The position numbers and the translations under genes are program-made. The notes under the pieces are model-generated. The model saw nothing but the letters and a program-made list of their open reading frames with translations, had not been told where the DNA came from and did not search any database. This document shows, in pieces, positions 1-4,367 of a stretch of 4,367 bases of DNA. How positions within the stretch are numbered: position 1 is the first letter of the stretch; the number at the start of each line of letters is the position of its first letter. The stretch is from a virus (taxonomy: Duplodnaviria; Heunggongvirae; Uroviricota; Caudoviricetes): the IMG/VR virus record IMGVR_UViG_2711768068_000016, positions 1-4,367 of that record. One strand, written 5' to 3'.

Positions 1-1761
1 TTCGTTACGCCGCTTTTTGTTATCCCACAGCAGACGCATCTTTCCTTTTTCCCACTTCTCCACAAGCTCTTCCGCGACCAGTTGCTGCGCCTCTGTCTGC
101 GAAAAAATCTCCGGATCATCAGGAAAACGGATGGCATACGACGTGGCTTCATCCGCAGGAGTGGGATCGGCTTTCATACGGGCATAGAGAATTTCTTTTG
201 CGGTGTCCGTCCCCACTTCACACAGATACACGCCCCGCTGATTGCGGGTTTTCGGCATGGTGATCACCGGCTTGCCATAGACAGATGCGCCTTTTACCGG
301 CAGCACCCGGAAAACACCGTGTTTTTTTGACCTCTGATAGACAATTTCACCATCGATCCCCCCGGTGTCCCAGCAGACACGGGAAATGGTCATTTCGGTT
401 CCGTCTGCATGGCAGTATTTTTTGTTGATCGCCGCATCCACACGTAACAGCGTCTCTTCCTCATCGGGACGGCCCATAATGATGATTTTATCCACCAGAA
501 AGGCTTCCTCTCCCGGTGCCCATCCCCAGACATACATCTCAAAACGGTTTCGCTGCGAGTCAATGCCCGCCGTCAGATAAACCACCCGGGCAGGCACCGC
601 CGCCGTGTAACGCACCACCTTATCCATCAGTACCTGGTGATCGAGTTTTTCGCCCACGGCCTCTTCCCAGGTCTCGCCCAGCGTGGTGTTCACAAAGGTT
701 TTCAGGCCGTTGGGATCTTTCAGTGCATCCAGCCAGTCATAGACTATCTGTATCCAGGTGGTGAACGGACTGTACGCCGTCCAGATATGGAACGTGATGG
801 AGCGCGGCGGCGGAATTTCATCCCCCCGGGCGCTGAAAAACATCAGGCCGTCACGGGTCCACATACCCGTGTTTTCACAGATCCAGCGCCCGTTACTCTG
901 GTCAAGCTCAGACTGATGGATCACGCAGCCATGATGTTCACAGAGGTAGAAAACGCTTTCGGGGCTGTCCTTCTCCCATTTAAGGCCAAAAGGCGTGGAT
1001 TCATCGCCAAATTTCAGATACTGCGCCTCCTCACAGTGCGGGCAGGGCACATAGAAACGCATGAAATGCGCCGACTCGTTGGCCGCTTTTTCGATCTGGC
1101 AGGTACCTTTGATTTTAGGCGTCGAGCCGCGAATGGATTTTGGCCATACAGAGCCCTCAATACGCTTATCCCCCAGCAGGGTTGGCGAGCCCTCTTTTTC
1201 GACATCCGGCTCGAACGAGGAAAGCTCGTCATAGCAGACCACGTCCACGGATTTTTCACGGTAGTTTTTGGCGGCTGCACCGCCCAGGCACCAGAAACCG
1301 ACGCCCGATGAAAAGCGTTTCAGCGTGAGAGTATTGTCACGATGTTTACGACCCAGCCATGGGGAAAGGTCTTTCAGGCATGGCACGTTCCGAATCGTCG
1401 CCTCCACGTGAGACTTCATAAAATCTTCAGCGGCAGAATCCGTGGGCTGAAAAAGCAGACTGTTTCGGGATTTATGCTCAATAAAATACCCGGCGACTCC
1501 CAGCAACATCTTTGTATAGCCAACACGGGCAGATTTAATCAGATTAACAGTGCGGATCTGATCATTCCCCATACTGTTCATGATGGCGATCTGGAACGGC
1601 AGCGTTTTCCATTCTCCCTCACCATATGAGGATTCTTTCGGCAGATAATAATACTGGTCAGCCCATTCAACTGCCGTCATCGGTACAACCCTGACCAGAG
1701 GCTGCAGCGCAACCGAAACGGCGGCCACCATATTATTCAGTTGTTGCTCTGATATATTCAT
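1..1761 (-). CDS. A: Phage terminase large subunit (lambda gpA-like), N-terminal ~587 codons; C-terminus lies beyond window position 1
   Basis: The minus-strand frame is open from ATG 1761-1759 to the window edge with no stop; the ORF track lists no closed ORF here, consistent with the stop lying outside the window. By-eye translation starts MNISEQQLNNMVAAVSVALQPLVRVVPMTAVEWADQYYYLPKESSYGEGEWKTLPFQIAIMNSMGNDQIRTVNLIKSARVGYTKMLLGV and ends LVEKWEKGKMRLLWDNKKRRNE at position 1. This is colinear with my recollection of lambda gpA (MNISNSQVNRLRHF...TAVEWADANYYLPKESAYQEGRWETLPFQRAIMNAMG...KSARVGYSKMLLGV...KKRRNEALDCF). Walker-A-like KSARVGYT and Walker-B-like VVCYDE motifs are present. Plus-strand ORFs at 82-1629 are antisense shadows of this gene. 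Confidence 0.93.
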   Translation of the reverse strand, partial: MNISEQQLNNMVAAVSVALQPLVRVVPMTAVEWADQYYYLPKESSYGEGEWKTLPFQIAIMNSMGNDQIRTVNLIKSARVGYTKMLLGVAGYFIEHKSRNSLLFQPTDSAAEDFMKSHVEATIRNVPCLKDLSPWLGRKHRDNTLTLKRFSSGVGFWCLGGAAAKNYREKSVDVVCYDELSSFEPDVEKEGSPTLLGDKRIEGSVWPKSIRGSTPKIKGTCQIEKAANESAHFMRFYVPCPHCEEAQYLKFGDESTPFGLKWEKDSPESVFYLCEHHGCVIHQSELDQSNGRWICENTGMWTRDGLMFFSARGDEIPPPRSITFHIWTAYSPFTTWIQIVYDWLDALKDPNGLKTFVNTTLGETWEEAVGEKLDHQVLMDKVVRYTAAVPARVVYLTAGIDSQRNRFEMYVWGWAPGEEAFLVDKIIIMGRPDEEETLLRVDAAINKKYCHADGTEMTISRVCWDTGGIDGEIVYQRSKKHGVFRVLPVKGASVYGKPVITMPKTRNQRGVYLCEVGTDTAKEILYARMKADPTPADEATSYAIRFPDDPEIFSQTEAQQLVAEELVEKWEKGKMRLLWDNKKRRNE

Positions 1762-2239
1762 CCAGCAAATCCGGTAATTTATCCCCTGCCCGCGCACACT
1801 GATTTGCGCCCTTTGCAATAAGGGTTTTCAGATGGTCAATATGACGTGGCGTTAAATCCGGGAACTGTCGCTGCATGGATAACGGAATGGAATCAAGCGT
1901 ACTGGACAATGCCATCGCCAGTTTGCTGAGGGCGAAAACGCAGAAGTCTGAATCGATGAGCTTACCTTCGGTTACCTGATTTTTAAGTTTTTGAGCTACA
2001 GCCTGTTCTTCTGTCAGTTCAGCTCTGGCCCGAAGCAGCCTTTCCTCCAGTTCTCCCCCGTCATCAGGTGTTCTCTGATTGTGTTGTCGCCGCTCGCGAT
2101 CTATCTCCAGTACAGTTTTAACGTCATATAAAACTTCCCTCCCCCGACGTTCAACAGGAGGAACGCCCCATTTATCAAATGCCTGAACAGAGATACCGAT
2201 GGAGGAGGCCATATCACTTTTATTCAATAAAAAGGCCAT
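1733..2239 (-). CDS. nu1: Phage terminase small subunit (lambda Nu1-like DNA-packaging protein)
   Basis: Track ORF 1733-2344 (minus) translates to ...GREVLYD...AVAQKLKNQ...DFCVFALSKLAMALSSTLDSIPLSMQRQFPDLTPRHIDHLKTLIAKG...DLLDEYIRATTE, matching recalled lambda Nu1 (NEVLYD...AQELKN...AFCTFVLSRIAGEIASILDGLPLSVQRRFPELENRHVDFLKRDIIKA...GLLSEYIEQSG). Start placed at ATG 2239-2237 (MAFLLNKSDMASSIG...) because GGAGAGGAG lies immediately upstream and it aligns with the lambda N-terminus MEVNKKQLADIFG. In-frame ATGs at 2257 and 2344 are alternatives, but the 2344 extension would read through the cosB repeats. Stop TAA at 1735-1733. Confidence 0.88.
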   Translation of the reverse strand: MAFLLNKSDMASSIGISVQAFDKWGVPPVERRGREVLYDVKTVLEIDRERRQHNQRTPDDGGELEERLLRARAELTEEQAVAQKLKNQVTEGKLIDSDFCVFALSKLAMALSSTLDSIPLSMQRQFPDLTPRHIDHLKTLIAKGANQCARAGDKLPDLLDEYIRATTE

Positions 2240-2271
2240 CTCCTCTCCATAAGTCATCGATAAAAAGCGAA

Positions 2272-2280
2272 ACAACAACC
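2272..2280 (+). repeat. cosB R-like element copy 1 (ACAACAACC), nearest the Nu1 start
   Basis: Exact 9-mer; extended match AAACAACAACC at 2270-2280, shared with copy 3. Confidence 0.55.
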
Positions 2281-2349
2281 ATGTGTTTTTGCAAAACCAT
2301 TTGATATCATTGATATTTTTCGCATTGACGACATCAAAACACATCGTAA

Positions 2350-2358
2350 GGTTGTTGT
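2350..2358 (-). repeat. cosB R-like element copy 2 (GGTTGTTGT on plus strand, i.e. ACAACAACC inverted)
   Basis: Exact reverse complement of the 9-mer, lying between the two direct copies. Confidence 0.55.
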
Positions 2359-2408
2359 ATTTATTTTATTTTCACCTTACTTATCAATTAGATATACCAA
2401 ACAATTAA

Positions 2409-2417
2409 ACAACAACC
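2409..2417 (+). repeat. cosB R-like element copy 3 (ACAACAACC), nearest cosN
   Basis: Exact 9-mer; extended match AAACAACAACC at 2407-2417. It lies about 40 nt from cosN, comparable to lambda R3. Confidence 0.55.
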
Positions 2418-2455
2418 ACCCCCTCAAAAAATCTCATAAATAGTGAAAACGCGCG

Positions 2456-2467
2456 AGGTCGCCGCCC
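2456..2467. other. cosN core: 12-nt cohesive-end sequence AGGTCGCCGCCC (reverse complement of the lambda left-end overhang GGGCGGCGACCT)
   Basis: Exact 12-mer seen in sequence. The flank toward Nu1 (rev-comp CGCGCGTTTTCACTATTTATGAGATTTTTT) closely resembles the recalled lambda left end (CGCGGGTTTTCGCTATTTATGAAAATTTT). The flank on the other side (2468-2660, cgtaaccggtcggatcgccggaaaggacccg...) closely resembles the recalled lambda right end (CGTAACCTGTCGGATCACCGGAAAGGACCCG...). The site lies at the expected position immediately upstream of Nu1. Confidence 0.85.
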
Positions 2468-2660
2468 CGTAACCGGTCGGATCGCCGGAAAGGACCCGCA
2501 AAATGATAATAATTATCATCTACATGTCACAACGTGCATCTACGCCATCAAACCACGTCAAATAATCAATTATGACGCAGGTATCGTATTAATTGATCTG
2601 CATCAAATTAACGTAAAAGCAACTTCAGATAATACAAATCAGCAACACTGAATATGGGGC
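2468..2660. other. Lambda right-end-like non-coding DNA adjacent to cosN (expected to contain cosQ)
   Basis: By recollection, about 90 percent nucleotide identity to the lambda right-terminal about 200 bp (…GATAATGATTATCATCTACATATCACAACGTGCG…CAAATAATCAATTATGACGCAGGTATCGTATTAATTGATCTGCATCAACTTAACG…). No ORF present. Confidence 0.7.
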
Positions 2661-2666
2661 AACATT

Positions 2667-2891
2667 ATGTCATCAAAGAACAGAACCCGCAGAACAACAA
2701 CCCGCAACATCCGATTTCCAAACCAGATGATTGAACAAATTAACATCGCTCTTGATCTGAAAGGTTCAGGAAATTTTTCAGCGTGGGTTATTGAAGCCTG
2801 CAGAAGAAGATTAATTAATGAAAAATATTCTCAATTTGTACCCAACAAAGACAAACACGACCAGAGCACCTGTTCAGACAGGTTTACTTAA
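2667..2891 (+). CDS. ylcI: Small DUF3950 / YlcI-YnfO family protein (lambda orf-64 homolog), putative ribbon-helix-helix DNA-binding protein
   Basis: 74-aa ORF MSSKNRTRRTTTRNIRFPNQMIEQINIALDLKGSGNFSAWVIEACRRRL... The first ~50 residues are nearly identical to the recalled lambda right-end ORF / E. coli YlcI (MSTKNRTRRTTTRNIRFPNQMIEQINIALEQKGSGNFSAWVIEACRRRL...). The pattern, a short beta-strand followed by two helices, is RHH-like. Stop TAA at 2889-2891. Confidence 0.8.
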   Translation: MSSKNRTRRTTTRNIRFPNQMIEQINIALDLKGSGNFSAWVIEACRRRLINEKYSQFVPNKDKHDQSTCSDRFT

Positions 2892-2908
2892 ACGACTTAT
2901 ATATGACA

Positions 2909-2937
2909 CAAAAAGCGACCACTAAAGTCGCTTTTTC
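2909..2937. terminator. Putative bidirectional Rho-independent terminator between the convergent ylcI-like and PerC-like genes
   Basis: Hairpin AAAAAGCGAC-cactaaa-GTCGCTTTTT: GC core stem GCGAC/GTCGC at 2915-2919 and 2927-2931, A-tract 2910-2914 on one side and T-tract 2932-2936 on the other, so it reads as stem plus U-tract in both directions. It sits 18 nt after the plus-strand gene stop and 36 nt after the minus-strand gene stop. Confidence 0.5.
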
Positions 2938-2972
2938 TTATGGTAACAGGCAATAACGCTCTCAGATATTTT

Positions 2973-3287
2973 TTAGCATTTTTTTGACCGCGCGTTTCCG
3001 GACGTATTCTGTTCTCCTGTCCCTTTATATCGTCGGAATACCCGCCGCTCTTCAAATCCCATTCCCAACTCAGAATGTAGTCTGTTGACCGCTTGTTTTA
3101 TTTCGGTCAGGTTCACCGGTGAAACCGGAGTCCGGCGCGCCTTACGCAAACACTCTGCTCGTTTCTGTGCCGCCACTTTTCTTTTCTGGTCATCACTTAG
3201 CTGTACCATCACTTTTGCCCATCGTTCAGCTGCTCTCCGGTACAGTCCTTTTTTCTCCAGACATTCTGCCAGGTGATCATGTAGCAT
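2973..3287 (-). CDS. PerC-family transcriptional regulator (Pch/YfdN-like prophage moron)
   Basis: 104-aa ORF MLHDHLAECLEKKGLYRRAAERWAKVMVQLSDDQKRKVAAQKRAECLRKARR... carrying the LExKGLYRRAAxRW signature I associate with the PerC family (EPEC PerC, O157 Pch proteins, K-12 YfdN). Good RBS: GGAGG 6 nt upstream of ATG 3287. Stop TAA at 2975-2973. Confidence 0.82.
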   Translation of the reverse strand: MLHDHLAECLEKKGLYRRAAERWAKVMVQLSDDQKRKVAAQKRAECLRKARRTPVSPVNLTEIKQAVNRLHSELGMGFEERRVFRRYKGTGEQNTSGNARSKKC

Positions 3288-3750
3288 AAGTAACCTCCGT
3301 TTATCTACAGACTGCCATCCTGAATTTACCGTCCTTAATAAGACAACAATAAAAAACTAATTATATAAAAACAATAAAAATAATATACAAAAAAACTAAA
3401 CAACAAAGAAAAGCAAATCATATCTGGCATTTTAATTGAAAGAGCAATTACCGAACAAAAGACGCTGACTATATACTCAAAACCAAACAACAATTCTGCC
3501 AATCAGGTATCATGGCAACACACGGAATTACCATGTTTTTGCCTTCTCTGCCCATACAATACGGGCATATACTTCATACTCTATTGTAATATTTCTATCC
3601 ATGCGCCCCACTCCATTTACCTGTAAATAATATTCAAAATATTTATCACAGAAATCGTTTTTGGCCATGAACTGAGCACACTATAAAGTCCGGAACTGAC
3701 TCTTTGTTAAATTACCTTAACGTTACCAGTAACACCTTCATAACAAAACA
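3288..3750 (-). promoter_or_regulatory. AT-rich non-coding island: presumed promoter/long leader of the PerC-like gene and region downstream of the Rz stop
   Basis: About 460 bp with no ORF of 60 codons or more in any frame. Extremely A-rich on the plus strand (e.g. 3340-3420 aataaaaaactaattatataaaaacaataaaaataatatacaaaaaaactaaacaacaaagaaaag). GC content is far below the flanking genes. No specific -35/-10 could be assigned with confidence. Confidence 0.4.
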
Positions 3751-4224
3751 TCACGGTATACACTGGGTACGGATATATTCCTGTGCTCCTTCCAGTTGCT
3801 TCTGCATTGCCATCAGCCGTTCTCTGAGGATGAAATAATCCCGTTCAGCGGCTTCTGCCAGTCGGGGACCGGTTGCATTATCCACGCCGGAGGTGATGGG
3901 GGCTTTACGCAAGGAGCCTGGACAGTTGGCGTTGATGCGCAGGCGCTTACGACCAGCGGCAACATCAGCACGCAGAGTTTCATTTTCAGCTCTCGCATCG
4001 GCTAATTCCCTCGAGTATCTGGCATCAAGTGCAGCAACATCACGCTGGCGCTGCTGCATATCAGTAATGGTTGCATTTGCCAGCTCCAGCTCACTGACTT
4101 TTTTATCGCGCTGCTCTTTGTAGGTTATGGCGTTATCGCGGTAATGATTCAGCCCCAGACTAAGCGCACCACAGACCACCAGCAGAATAACGGTAAACGC
4201 GGAAAGCATTCGGTTTATGCTCAC
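3751..4224 (-). CDS. rz: Rz i-spanin (inner-membrane spanin subunit), lambda Rz-like
   Basis: 157-aa ORF MSINRMLSAFTVILLVVCGALSLGLNHYRDNAITYKEQRDK...DVAALDARYSRELADARAENETLRADVAAGRKRL...SGVDNATGPRLAEAAERDYFILRERLMAMQKQLEGAQEYIRTQC, colinear with recalled lambda Rz (…AVNHYRDNAITYKAQRDKN…DVAALDAKYTKELADAKAENDALRDDVAAGRRRL…ASGVDNAASPRLADTAERDYFTLRERLITMQKQLEGTQKYINEQCR). N-terminal TM helix present. GTG start at 4224 overlaps the stop of the upstream ORF (GTGA), as ATGA does in lambda R/Rz. Confidence 0.93.
   Translation of the reverse strand: MSINRMLSAFTVILLVVCGALSLGLNHYRDNAITYKEQRDKKVSELELANATITDMQQRQRDVAALDARYSRELADARAENETLRADVAAGRKRLRINANCPGSLRKAPITSGVDNATGPRLAEAAERDYFILRERLMAMQKQLEGAQEYIRTQCIP
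3813..3998 (-). CDS. rz1: Rz1 o-spanin (outer-membrane lipoprotein spanin subunit), embedded out of frame within Rz
   Basis: 61-aa ORF MRELKMKLCVLMLPLVVSACASTPTVQAPCVKPPSPPAWIMQPVPDWQKPLNGIISSSENG: signal peptide with lipobox (VVSAC), proline-rich mature region. Matches recalled lambda Rz1 (MLKLKMMLCVMMLPLVVVGCTSK…CVKPPPPPAWIMQPPPDWQTPLNGIISPSERG). Entirely nested in the Rz gene in a different frame. Confidence 0.9.
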   Translation of the reverse strand: MRELKMKLCVLMLPLVVSACASTPTVQAPCVKPPSPPAWIMQPVPDWQKPLNGIISSSENG

Positions 4225-4367
4225 CCCACCAGCCCTGCCGAAGTCAACGCCATCCAGGCCATGGAAAGAAAAAGAGCAACCAGCATTAGTGAAAATGAAA
4301 TGCCGACAAGTACACAGAGGCTCTTCACCAGCGTTATGAGTTTATCTGATATCATTAGCCACCCCAT
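4221..4367 (-). CDS. Partial ORF encoding a hydrophobic, probably membrane-spanning C-terminus (48 codons visible; start at or beyond the window edge); unclassified lysis-cassette member
   Basis: Minus-strand frame from the window edge: MGWLMISDKLITLVKSLCVLVGISFSLMLVALFLSMAWMALTSAGLVG, ending at TGA 4223-4221, which overlaps the Rz GTG start. The ATG at 4367-4365 is in frame but the ORF may extend beyond the window. The sequence is not lambda R-like (lambda R ends ...GGTVREIDV). Confidence 0.45.
   Translation of the reverse strand: MGWLMISDKLITLVKSLCVLVGISFSLMLVALFLSMAWMALTSAGLVG

Follow-up and report, generated by a model that had tools for sequence, protein, structure and literature searches.

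Which gene stands directly before the spanin gene Rz in the lysis cassette of a lambdoid phage, and what might its product do there? In lambda it is the gene of the soluble endolysin R, which ends in ...REIDV and whose stop codon overlaps the ATG of Rz as ATGA. In the stretch of DNA analysed here (the window, 4,367 nucleotides, positions 1 to 4,367 of the IMG/VR record IMGVR_UViG_2711768068_000016, a virus of the Caudoviricetes), the place of R is taken by an open reading frame (ORF) of 48 codons, here called orf48, which reaches the edge of the window and ends in a strongly hydrophobic segment; the gene as found at other loci, with 44 to 48 codons, is called orf4x. A reading made from the letters alone (the sequence-only reading) had compared the junction with that of lambda, accurately, and had considered a holin or antiholin, a lysis factor anchored in the membrane or a small, unrelated membrane protein inserted in the lysis operon; the 48 codons were thought to be a fragment. 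Our analysis revealed that orf48 stands alone as a gene, encodes a membrane protein with a single helix, is under selection and is embedded in and coupled to the late lysis genes.

The orf48 frame lies on the minus strand (ATG GGG TGG ... GTG GGG TGA) and encodes MGWLMISDKLITLVKSLCVLVGISFSLMLVALFLSMAWMALTSAGLVG (MGWLMISDKL…SAGLVG). Its TGA (4223-4221) shares bases with the GTG (4224-4222) that opens the 157-codon Rz frame, which confirms the proposed overlap of four nucleotides, GTGA; the hydrophobic end of the peptide as quoted from the letters agrees exactly with the translation, and the 33 residues from S16 to G48 bear no charge at all. The junction resembles that between R and Rz of lambda in its four-nucleotide stop/start overlap (ATGA in lambda, GTGA here) and in the conserved next codon AGC, and differs from it in the upstream gene, a soluble endolysin in lambda and a membrane protein of 44-48 aa here. 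The RefSeq start of Rz for this allele is a downstream ATG at window position 4209 (152 aa), whereas the GTG at 4224 would give an Rz beginning MSINR…, parallel to MSR… of lambda Rz. Because locus L065 has ATT where the RefSeq ATG would be, and because GTGAGCA is paralleled by ATGAGCA in lambda, the GTG start is favoured, and the annotated start of this Rz allele is probably set too far downstream. By eye, no likeness of orf48 to the N-terminal transmembrane domain of Rz was apparent that would mark it as a duplication remnant, and an antisense ORF of 40 aa inside orf48 (4217-4339, plus strand) has no independent support.

Over its final 668 bases, the window shares 99.9% identity with prophages of many enterohaemorrhagic Escherichia coli (EHEC) genomes, in which the sequence upstream can be read. 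In E. coli Xuzhou21 (locus L001), the order of genes is a P21-type class II holin (PF04971), YdfR/DUF1327, a lysozyme with an N-terminus like that of signal-anchor-release (SAR) endolysins (PF00959), a gap of 270 nt, an antirepressor (Ant) of 189 aa with the domains P22_AR_N and ORF11CD3, the 48-aa ORF (WP_000539795.1), Rz/Rz1, a PerC-family gene and terminase. In this DNA the frame of orf48 meets a TGA 12 codons before its ATG, the sole other possible start being a TTG one codon before the ATG, and Ant ends in a different frame at TGATG, with just the final base of its stop inside the window. In this way, the 48 codons are the whole ORF and not a fragment, and it was mistaken to suppose a larger gene cut off by the edge of the window. 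The endolysin, whose place had been left open, is the separate PF00959 gene that ends 840 nt upstream, with Ant in between, and the holin (PF04971, E = 7.3e-33) is another separate gene 1.8 kb upstream; among the options of the sequence-only reading, a stand-alone small membrane protein in the lysis operon is thus supported, while a holin is not.

The conserved start of the gene is the second ATG (4355-4353), which gives a protein of 44 aa, because the core ORF of loci without Ant starts with MSDKL… and has GGAGGA 7 nt before its ATG (AAGGGG in another context), the first ATG is unusable in L082, where TAG follows it, and in L009, where a frameshift puts it out of frame, homology between the contexts restarts at L001 6008-6016 (window 4360-4352), and the most divergent family members all start with MSD or MSG. 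By comparison of the contexts, the first five codons (MGWLM), together with the ATG at the window edge, are read as the 3' end of the Ant module. At its other end, orf4x either overlaps the next gene by GTGA (this type of Rz, and a 40-aa PHROG 3246-like ORF in L068) or is separated from it by a gap, of 5-8 nt and at the largest 10 nt. The G-rich last codons (GGG CTG GTG GGG or GGT GGA) appear to double as the Shine-Dalgarno sequence of the downstream gene. A crude consensus scan found no promoter-like site on the coding strand, so that the gene is most simply taken to be expressed from the late transcript, and no Rfam family matched L001 3600-7500, a search that detects only described elements.

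The best 19-residue window of orf48 has a mean Kyte-Doolittle (KD) value of 2.57, and AlphaFold predicts one continuous helix over residues 2-43 (mean pLDDT 88.9). With a mean KD of 2.6-2.9, the orf4x core is the most hydrophobic segment of the cassette (the SAR domain has 1.67, the pinholin 1.83 and the Rz anchor 2.41), which argues for a stable anchor and not a releasable segment of the SAR type. Residues 39-48 (MALTSAGLVG) are uncharged in orf48, and most alleles have a single R39 there. K9 and K15 weakly favour a topology with the N-terminus inside and the C-terminus outside, and the R39 of most alleles leaves it ambiguous.

Selection on the peptide was assessed in 163 loci with 35 distinct nucleotide alleles, which differ by 201 nucleotide changes in total over a minimum spanning tree. 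The frame is unbroken in all but one of the loci (162 of 163). The ratio of nonsynonymous to synonymous substitution rates (dN/dS) is 0.31 in the orf4x frame, while in the other two sense frames the values are 0.97 and 1.26, and the variable sites are distributed over the three codon positions as 25/18/34. When an equal number of changes was placed at random, the frame stayed open in 0.24% of simulations (P = 0.0024). Furthermore, the real alleles have never gained D, E, K, R or P in residues 17-38, which remained free of them in 0 of 10,000 simulations (P < 1e-4), and only one strongly polar replacement was observed in the core, while 18.7 were expected. A smaller first set (12 alleles) showed the same direction with a weaker signal (dN/dS 0.50, codon positions 16/12/17).

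orf48 belongs to PHROG 4906, a family with no assigned function (hidden Markov model match with E = 3.9e-28, residues 1-48 on profile positions 2-49 of 49), to which the divergent member from L092 also belongs (E = 1.9e-19), and in EHEC genomes the identical protein of 48 aa carries the annotation WP_000539795.1. The existence of the ORF is thus already catalogued in PHROG and RefSeq and is not new. Of 5,426 complete E. coli genomes, about a third (1,746) carry the core DNA, 4,652 copies in all and as many as 11 in a single genome. Additionally, 276 phage records carry the ORF, nearly all of them Shiga toxin (Stx)-converting or related phages of E. coli and Shigella, in which it is usually unannotated or 'hypothetical'. 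A word-indexed protein search gave matches confined to E. coli entries. The sole match among 185,579 species-representative genomes of GTDB was a 328-bp contig (NZ_JPLE01000251.1, locus L082) assigned to 'Xanthomonas pisi DSM 18956'; it carries the 3' end of Ant and orf4x, and is almost certainly contaminating E. coli phage DNA.

The surroundings of orf4x are diverse. At about 85 loci the order is pinholin, (YdfR), SAR lysozyme, Ant, orf4x and Rz/Rz1, and at about 22 loci PHROG 1115 stands between the SAR lysozyme and orf4x in an otherwise identical series. At about 3 loci a KilAC-type Ant replaces the P22-type Ant, and at about 5 a PHROG 3246-like mini-ORF and a Dam-like methylase are inserted exactly at the GTGA junction. 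About 42 loci have a different cassette, with Phage_holin_8, a holin of three transmembrane segments (Phage_holin_3_7), a soluble GH108 endolysin, PHROG 1115, orf4x of a divergent 44-aa subfamily and a PHROG 7528 lipoprotein; a complete Stx2e prophage shows this arrangement with an M15 peptidase as endolysin. Thus orf4x is found with three types of endolysin (SAR lysozyme, GH108 and M15), two sets of holins and two kinds of downstream gene, is always between the endolysin and the final gene of the lysis cassette, and lies inside the cassette in 163 of 163 loci. Between these two genes it is the element that stays constant while its surroundings are exchanged, and it is a constant part of the lysis cassette in Stx-type lambdoid prophages of E. 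coli. The breakpoints of this mosaic are found at the 5' end of orf4x, inside the ORF and at GTGA. The coordinates of orf48, its neighbours and the genes that accompany orf4x elsewhere are given in Table 1.

Table 1. Coordinates of orf48, of its neighbours in the window and of the small genes that accompany orf4x at other loci.
Feature	Sequence	Position	Strand	Remarks
orf48, long form	window	4221..4367	-	48 aa, from ATG at window edge to TGA; RefSeq WP_000539795.1 'hypothetical protein'; PHROG 4906
orf48, conserved core gene	window	4221..4355	-	44 aa, MISDKL..., from second ATG; start common to all contexts
Variable N-terminal extension MGWL	window	4356..4367	-	from 3' end of Ant module (by comparison of contexts); ATG overlaps Ant stop (TGATG)
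Transmembrane core, residues 17-38 (LCVLVGISFSLMLVALFLSMAW)	window	4254..4319	-	never charged; KD 2.57; AlphaFold helix
GTGA junction	window	4221..4224	-	orf48 stop overlaps Rz GTG start; also mosaic recombination joint taking other cargo
Rz i-spanin	window	3751..4224	-	157 aa from GTG; PF03245, E = 1.3e-46; phrog_13
Rz1 o-spanin lipoprotein	window	3813..3998	-	embedded in Rz in another frame; PF06085, E = 4.1e-19; phrog_3198
Features downstream of Rz	window	3528-3668; 2973-3287; 2667-2891; 1735-2280	-; -; +; -	EHEC prophage annotation
PHROG 1115/4493/3246 member	L081	2783-2998		
PHROG 1115/4493/3246 member	L092	3301-3483		
PHROG 1115/4493/3246 member	L166	7052-7234		
PHROG 7528 lipoprotein	L092	3641-3823		
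PHROG 7528 lipoprotein	L166	7392-7574		
PHROG 7528 lipoprotein	phiP27 (L163)	~3452-3690		

Several of the neighbours deserve description. The Ant of the EHEC prophages (L001 5432-6001) lies directly past window position 4367, between the SAR lysozyme and orf48 in the late operon, and its 189 aa match just positions 7-210 of the 317-position phrog_524 Ant profile. The KilAC-type Ant occupies the same slot (L078 2208-2903), and the Dam-like methylase of L068 (3271-4038) stands between orf48 and Rz, where the insert sits exactly at GTGA and begins with a 40-aa relative of PHROG 3246 that follows orf48. Two types of Ant and a Dam-like methylase in the interval between R and Rz identify it as a hot spot for cargo. 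In the Ant region of L136, L146, L002 and L035, Ant or the lysozyme is matched by two adjacent tblastn segments, a pattern that suggests frameshifted or partly duplicated copies of these genes in some prophages. YdfR/DUF1327, in the interval between holin and lysozyme (L001 4230-4577), has a dN/dS of about 0.9 over 6 alleles with even variation among codon positions, and is either relaxed or diversifying, unlike its neighbours (0.08-0.16).

PHROG 1115/4493/3246 proteins have 60 aa, a C-terminal transmembrane domain and a conserved PVTDDISRA motif; their gene is usually just upstream of orf4x and moves with it, and the pair of PHROG 1115 and orf4x keeps 82.5% DNA identity between the two unrelated types of cassette. 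A symmetric, terminator-like hairpin (AAAACCCCG…CGGGGTTTT) followed by a T-rich tail is present at L081 2750-2782 and L092 ~3228-3268. Both types of cassette have it after the endolysin and before PHROG 1115, with a different stem sequence and the pairing kept, and it may be a module boundary mark or a bidirectional terminator that is read through by the Q-modified polymerase. PHROG 7528, which follows the 44-aa form of orf4x in cassettes of the phiP27/Stx2e type, is a 60-aa protein with a lipobox (FFLVGC) and a mature part of about 30 aa with three cysteines. In L151 this lipoprotein gene comes after Rz, so both are present, and its position is the one held by bor in lambda. The complete Stx2e prophage (STEC409, L166) has a remnant of a first cassette (class II holin and YdfR, without lysozyme) at 4609-5173 and a second, complete cassette (holin_8, holin of three transmembrane segments, M15 endolysin) directly downstream at 5590-7574; the anti-adapter gene iraM adjoins stx2 there. 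In the window itself, the stretch downstream of Rz contains a 46-aa ORF, a PerC-family regulator gene, a YlcI/YnfO-family gene on the opposite strand and the genes of the small and large terminase subunits.

In the reading that we favour, with a little more than even confidence, orf48 is complete and translated, and its product is a single-helix protein of the inner membrane, a member of PHROG 4906, that serves as a generic accessory factor late in infection. Its gene would be transcribed only within the Q-antiterminated late transcript, and the product would insert stably into the inner membrane late in infection and act there as a non-essential accessory factor. It would probably have a general target on the side of the host, the membrane or a host factor, and tune, for example, lysis timing or membrane energisation. 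Three unrelated endolysins and two unrelated sets of holins make action on one particular phage lysis protein improbable, and a partner-specific role, such as an antiholin for one holin, a releasin for SAR endolysins or a cofactor of Rz, is unlikely; the antiholin considered in the sequence-only reading loses ground for the same reason, as the gene co-occurs with unrelated holins and endolysins. The best guess from these patterns of association would be a generic role in lysis at the level of the membrane.

Several points weigh against a role of this kind. No characterised relative was found: the PHROG 4906-type ORF has no match in Pfam, NCBIfam or PADLOC, a profile search of 1.84 billion representative proteins gave 29 matches that are all members or fragments of its own family, and a literature search by accession, PHROG numbers, sequence and Stx-phage lysis cassettes found no mention of the ORF. 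Position in a lysis cassette is no proof of a role in lysis, since the same slot also holds Ants and a Dam-like methylase, and the promoter scan behind the inferred late expression is a crude consensus search. Lambda lyses without the gene, for which reason orf4x is not a core or essential component of lysis, and to our knowledge phage 21 lyses without it as well. Moreover, its residues are more loosely constrained than those of its neighbours (dN/dS of 0.50 for orf48, while the values for holin, lysozyme and Ant are 0.08, 0.11 and 0.16, all from the first 82 loci and pooled over all pairs of alleles, so that the 0.50 is not on the scale of the 0.31 from the larger set with its other summation). 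The loose constraint on residues and the retained hydrophobicity indicate that selection acts to keep the helix hydrophobic and not to keep any specific surface.

Comparison with the described proteins of lysis cassettes places orf48 beside them and not among them. Lambda S107, S21-71, T4 RI, P1 LydB and P2 LysA are non-essential membrane-associated modulators encoded in lysis cassettes, each of them specific to a holin. No sequence similarity of orf48 to known antiholins and accessories was detected, LysA, LydB and RI being set apart by their description only; moreover, known antiholins serve their own holin, whereas orf4x is common to cassettes with unrelated holins. The 'releasin' gp25 of Mu (DUF2730/PF10805), a protein of 99 aa with an N-terminal transmembrane domain and a 73-aa anionic cytoplasmic domain, helps to free the SAR endolysin (PMC9239132). 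Like orf48, gp25 is a small accessory protein with a single transmembrane domain that is no holin, whose gene is a few genes away from that of a SAR endolysin and beside spanin genes; however, orf48, with 44-48 aa and a single helix, is nearly nothing but its helix and has no PF10805 match, and orf4x also accompanies soluble GH108 and M15 endolysins, which need no release. The cassette around orf48 has the parts of the phage 21/Stx cassette with S21, R21 and Rz/Rz1 (PF04971, SAR-type PF00959, PF03245 and PF06085). In the published comparison of lytic cassettes from Stx phages, the genes listed are holin, endolysin and Rz/Rz1 only, with no mention of the small ORF and nothing between R and Rz, where the loci analysed here have Ant and orf48 or PHROG 1115 and orf4x (PMC8136144). 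The frame of orf48 is not continuous with a muralytic domain, as that of an endolysin C-terminus would be. For a type I toxin (Hok/Ldr/TisB-like), which would have a promoter of its own and an antisense RNA regulator, there was no Rfam match within L001 3600-7500 and no promoter-like site on the coding strand, with tools that detect described or consensus elements only. orf48 is best described as an uncharacterised variant among the small accessory membrane proteins of lysis cassettes.

The rival that survives best, which we hold to be unlikely and yet take seriously, is that orf4x is moron-type cargo unrelated to lysis, of benefit to the lysogen or to the phage in another way (for superinfection exclusion, tolerance of membrane stress or interference with other phages), which settled at an insertion hot spot between R and Rz. 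This interval does hold P22_AR_N-type and KilAC-type Ants and a Dam-like methylase, the unit of PHROG 1115 and orf4x moves between unrelated cassettes with a hairpin at its upstream boundary, and at one locus the PHROG 7528 lipoprotein follows Rz in the position of lambda bor. However, cargo would be expressed in the lysogen, for which no promoter-like site is present on the coding strand; the gene is translationally coupled to late lysis genes, matches no defence model (PADLOC protein models, E <= 0.1) and, in all 163 loci, was never seen elsewhere in the prophage.

Somewhat less credible than cargo is the proposal that orf4x marks an undescribed class of lysis-cassette component, a minimal single-helix protein of the inner membrane that is often accompanied by PHROG 1115 and PHROG 7528 and acts on the envelope whichever holin, endolysin or spanin is present. 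If this were true, the three proteins could perform the final disruption of the envelope in phages of the phiP27/Stx2e type that have no recognisable Rz/Rz1-like spanin, and a factor of this class would also affect the kinetics of Shiga toxin release.

It is doubtful that orf4x is merely a leader for translational coupling and a linker for recombination, whose peptide is incidental. Its 3' end is nearly invariant across contexts, with Shine-Dalgarno-like runs of G at 0-10 nt before the next start codon, the Rz of this type has a weak GTG start that overlaps the stop, and breakpoints fall at both ends of the ORF and inside it, all as a leader and linker might have them. However, 201 changes that brought no charge or proline into the core and one polar replacement where 18.7 were expected are difficult to reconcile with an incidental peptide, the frame-specific dN/dS (0.31 against about 1) indicates selection on the peptide, and in contexts without Ant the gene has a strong ribosome-binding site of its own, GGAGGA.

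Still less probable is a spanin-like set for envelope disruption formed by orf4x, PHROG 1115 and PHROG 7528, which would be redundant beside Rz/Rz1 and functional in phages of the phiP27/Stx2e type. At about 42 loci and in the complete Stx2e prophage, the three small genes take the position of the spanins right behind the endolysin, and the interval from there to the terminase genes, to which this negative applies, showed neither a homologue of Rz/Rz1 nor a PHROG spanin. Against it, the periplasmic parts, of about 10 residues in orf4x and about 30 in the mature lipoprotein, are far too short to bridge the periplasm, the cassette of the window has Rz/Rz1 and neither PHROG 1115 nor the lipoprotein, and L151 has both Rz and the lipoprotein. 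orf48 itself has no soluble domain, no lipobox (its sole cysteine is in K-S-L-C inside the helix) and no PHROG or Pfam spanin match.

We consider it very improbable that the cassette is rearranged and orf48 its holin or an antiholin specific to a holin, as might be supposed of any small membrane protein encoded there. With two in-frame ATGs at a distance of four codons, the gene recalls dual-start motifs, and there is a match to the holin family phrog_13249 that is not significant (E = 0.029), while no Pfam holin model matches at E <= 1. However, the cassette already has a bona fide P21-type holin, and orf48 lacks the charged hydrophilic C-terminal domain of holins. The dual start is not conserved either: the upstream ATG comes with the Ant module and adds the uncharged extension MGWL, but 72 of 163 loci lack it, in L009 it is out of frame and in L082 a stop follows it. 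Additionally, the unrelated holins of the second cassette type (Phage_holin_8 and Phage_holin_3_7) argue against a specific antiholin interaction between transmembrane domains. Finally, there is practically no chance that orf48 is the C-terminal tail of a larger protein, be it an endolysin or a membrane-anchored Ant: inside the window the frame is open up to the edge, and Ant is fused to the helix in the rare database variants P0029, P0001 and P0008 (one member each), but these deletion or frameshift variants are the only known fusions, the upstream TGA, the other frame of Ant and the distant end of the lysozyme close the frame, and 72 of the 163 loci have a gene that opens at MSDKL, behind a ribosome-binding site of its own or a different upstream neighbour. 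A programmed -1 frameshift between Ant and the helix was considered and rejected, as inspection of the 33-nt open overlap showed no canonical slippery heptamer (X XXY YYZ) in the correct register.

The lysis cassettes of Stx phages determine when and how efficiently the cell lyses, and hence the release of Shiga toxin and of phage. To their accepted list of parts (pinholin, SAR endolysin and Rz/Rz1), a further conserved and selected membrane-protein gene is now to be added in most. If orf4x modulates lysis, it would be an addition to a well-studied paradigm; if it has no role in lysis, it would be a clean case of small-protein cargo and of a mosaic joint in the evolution of lambdoid phages.

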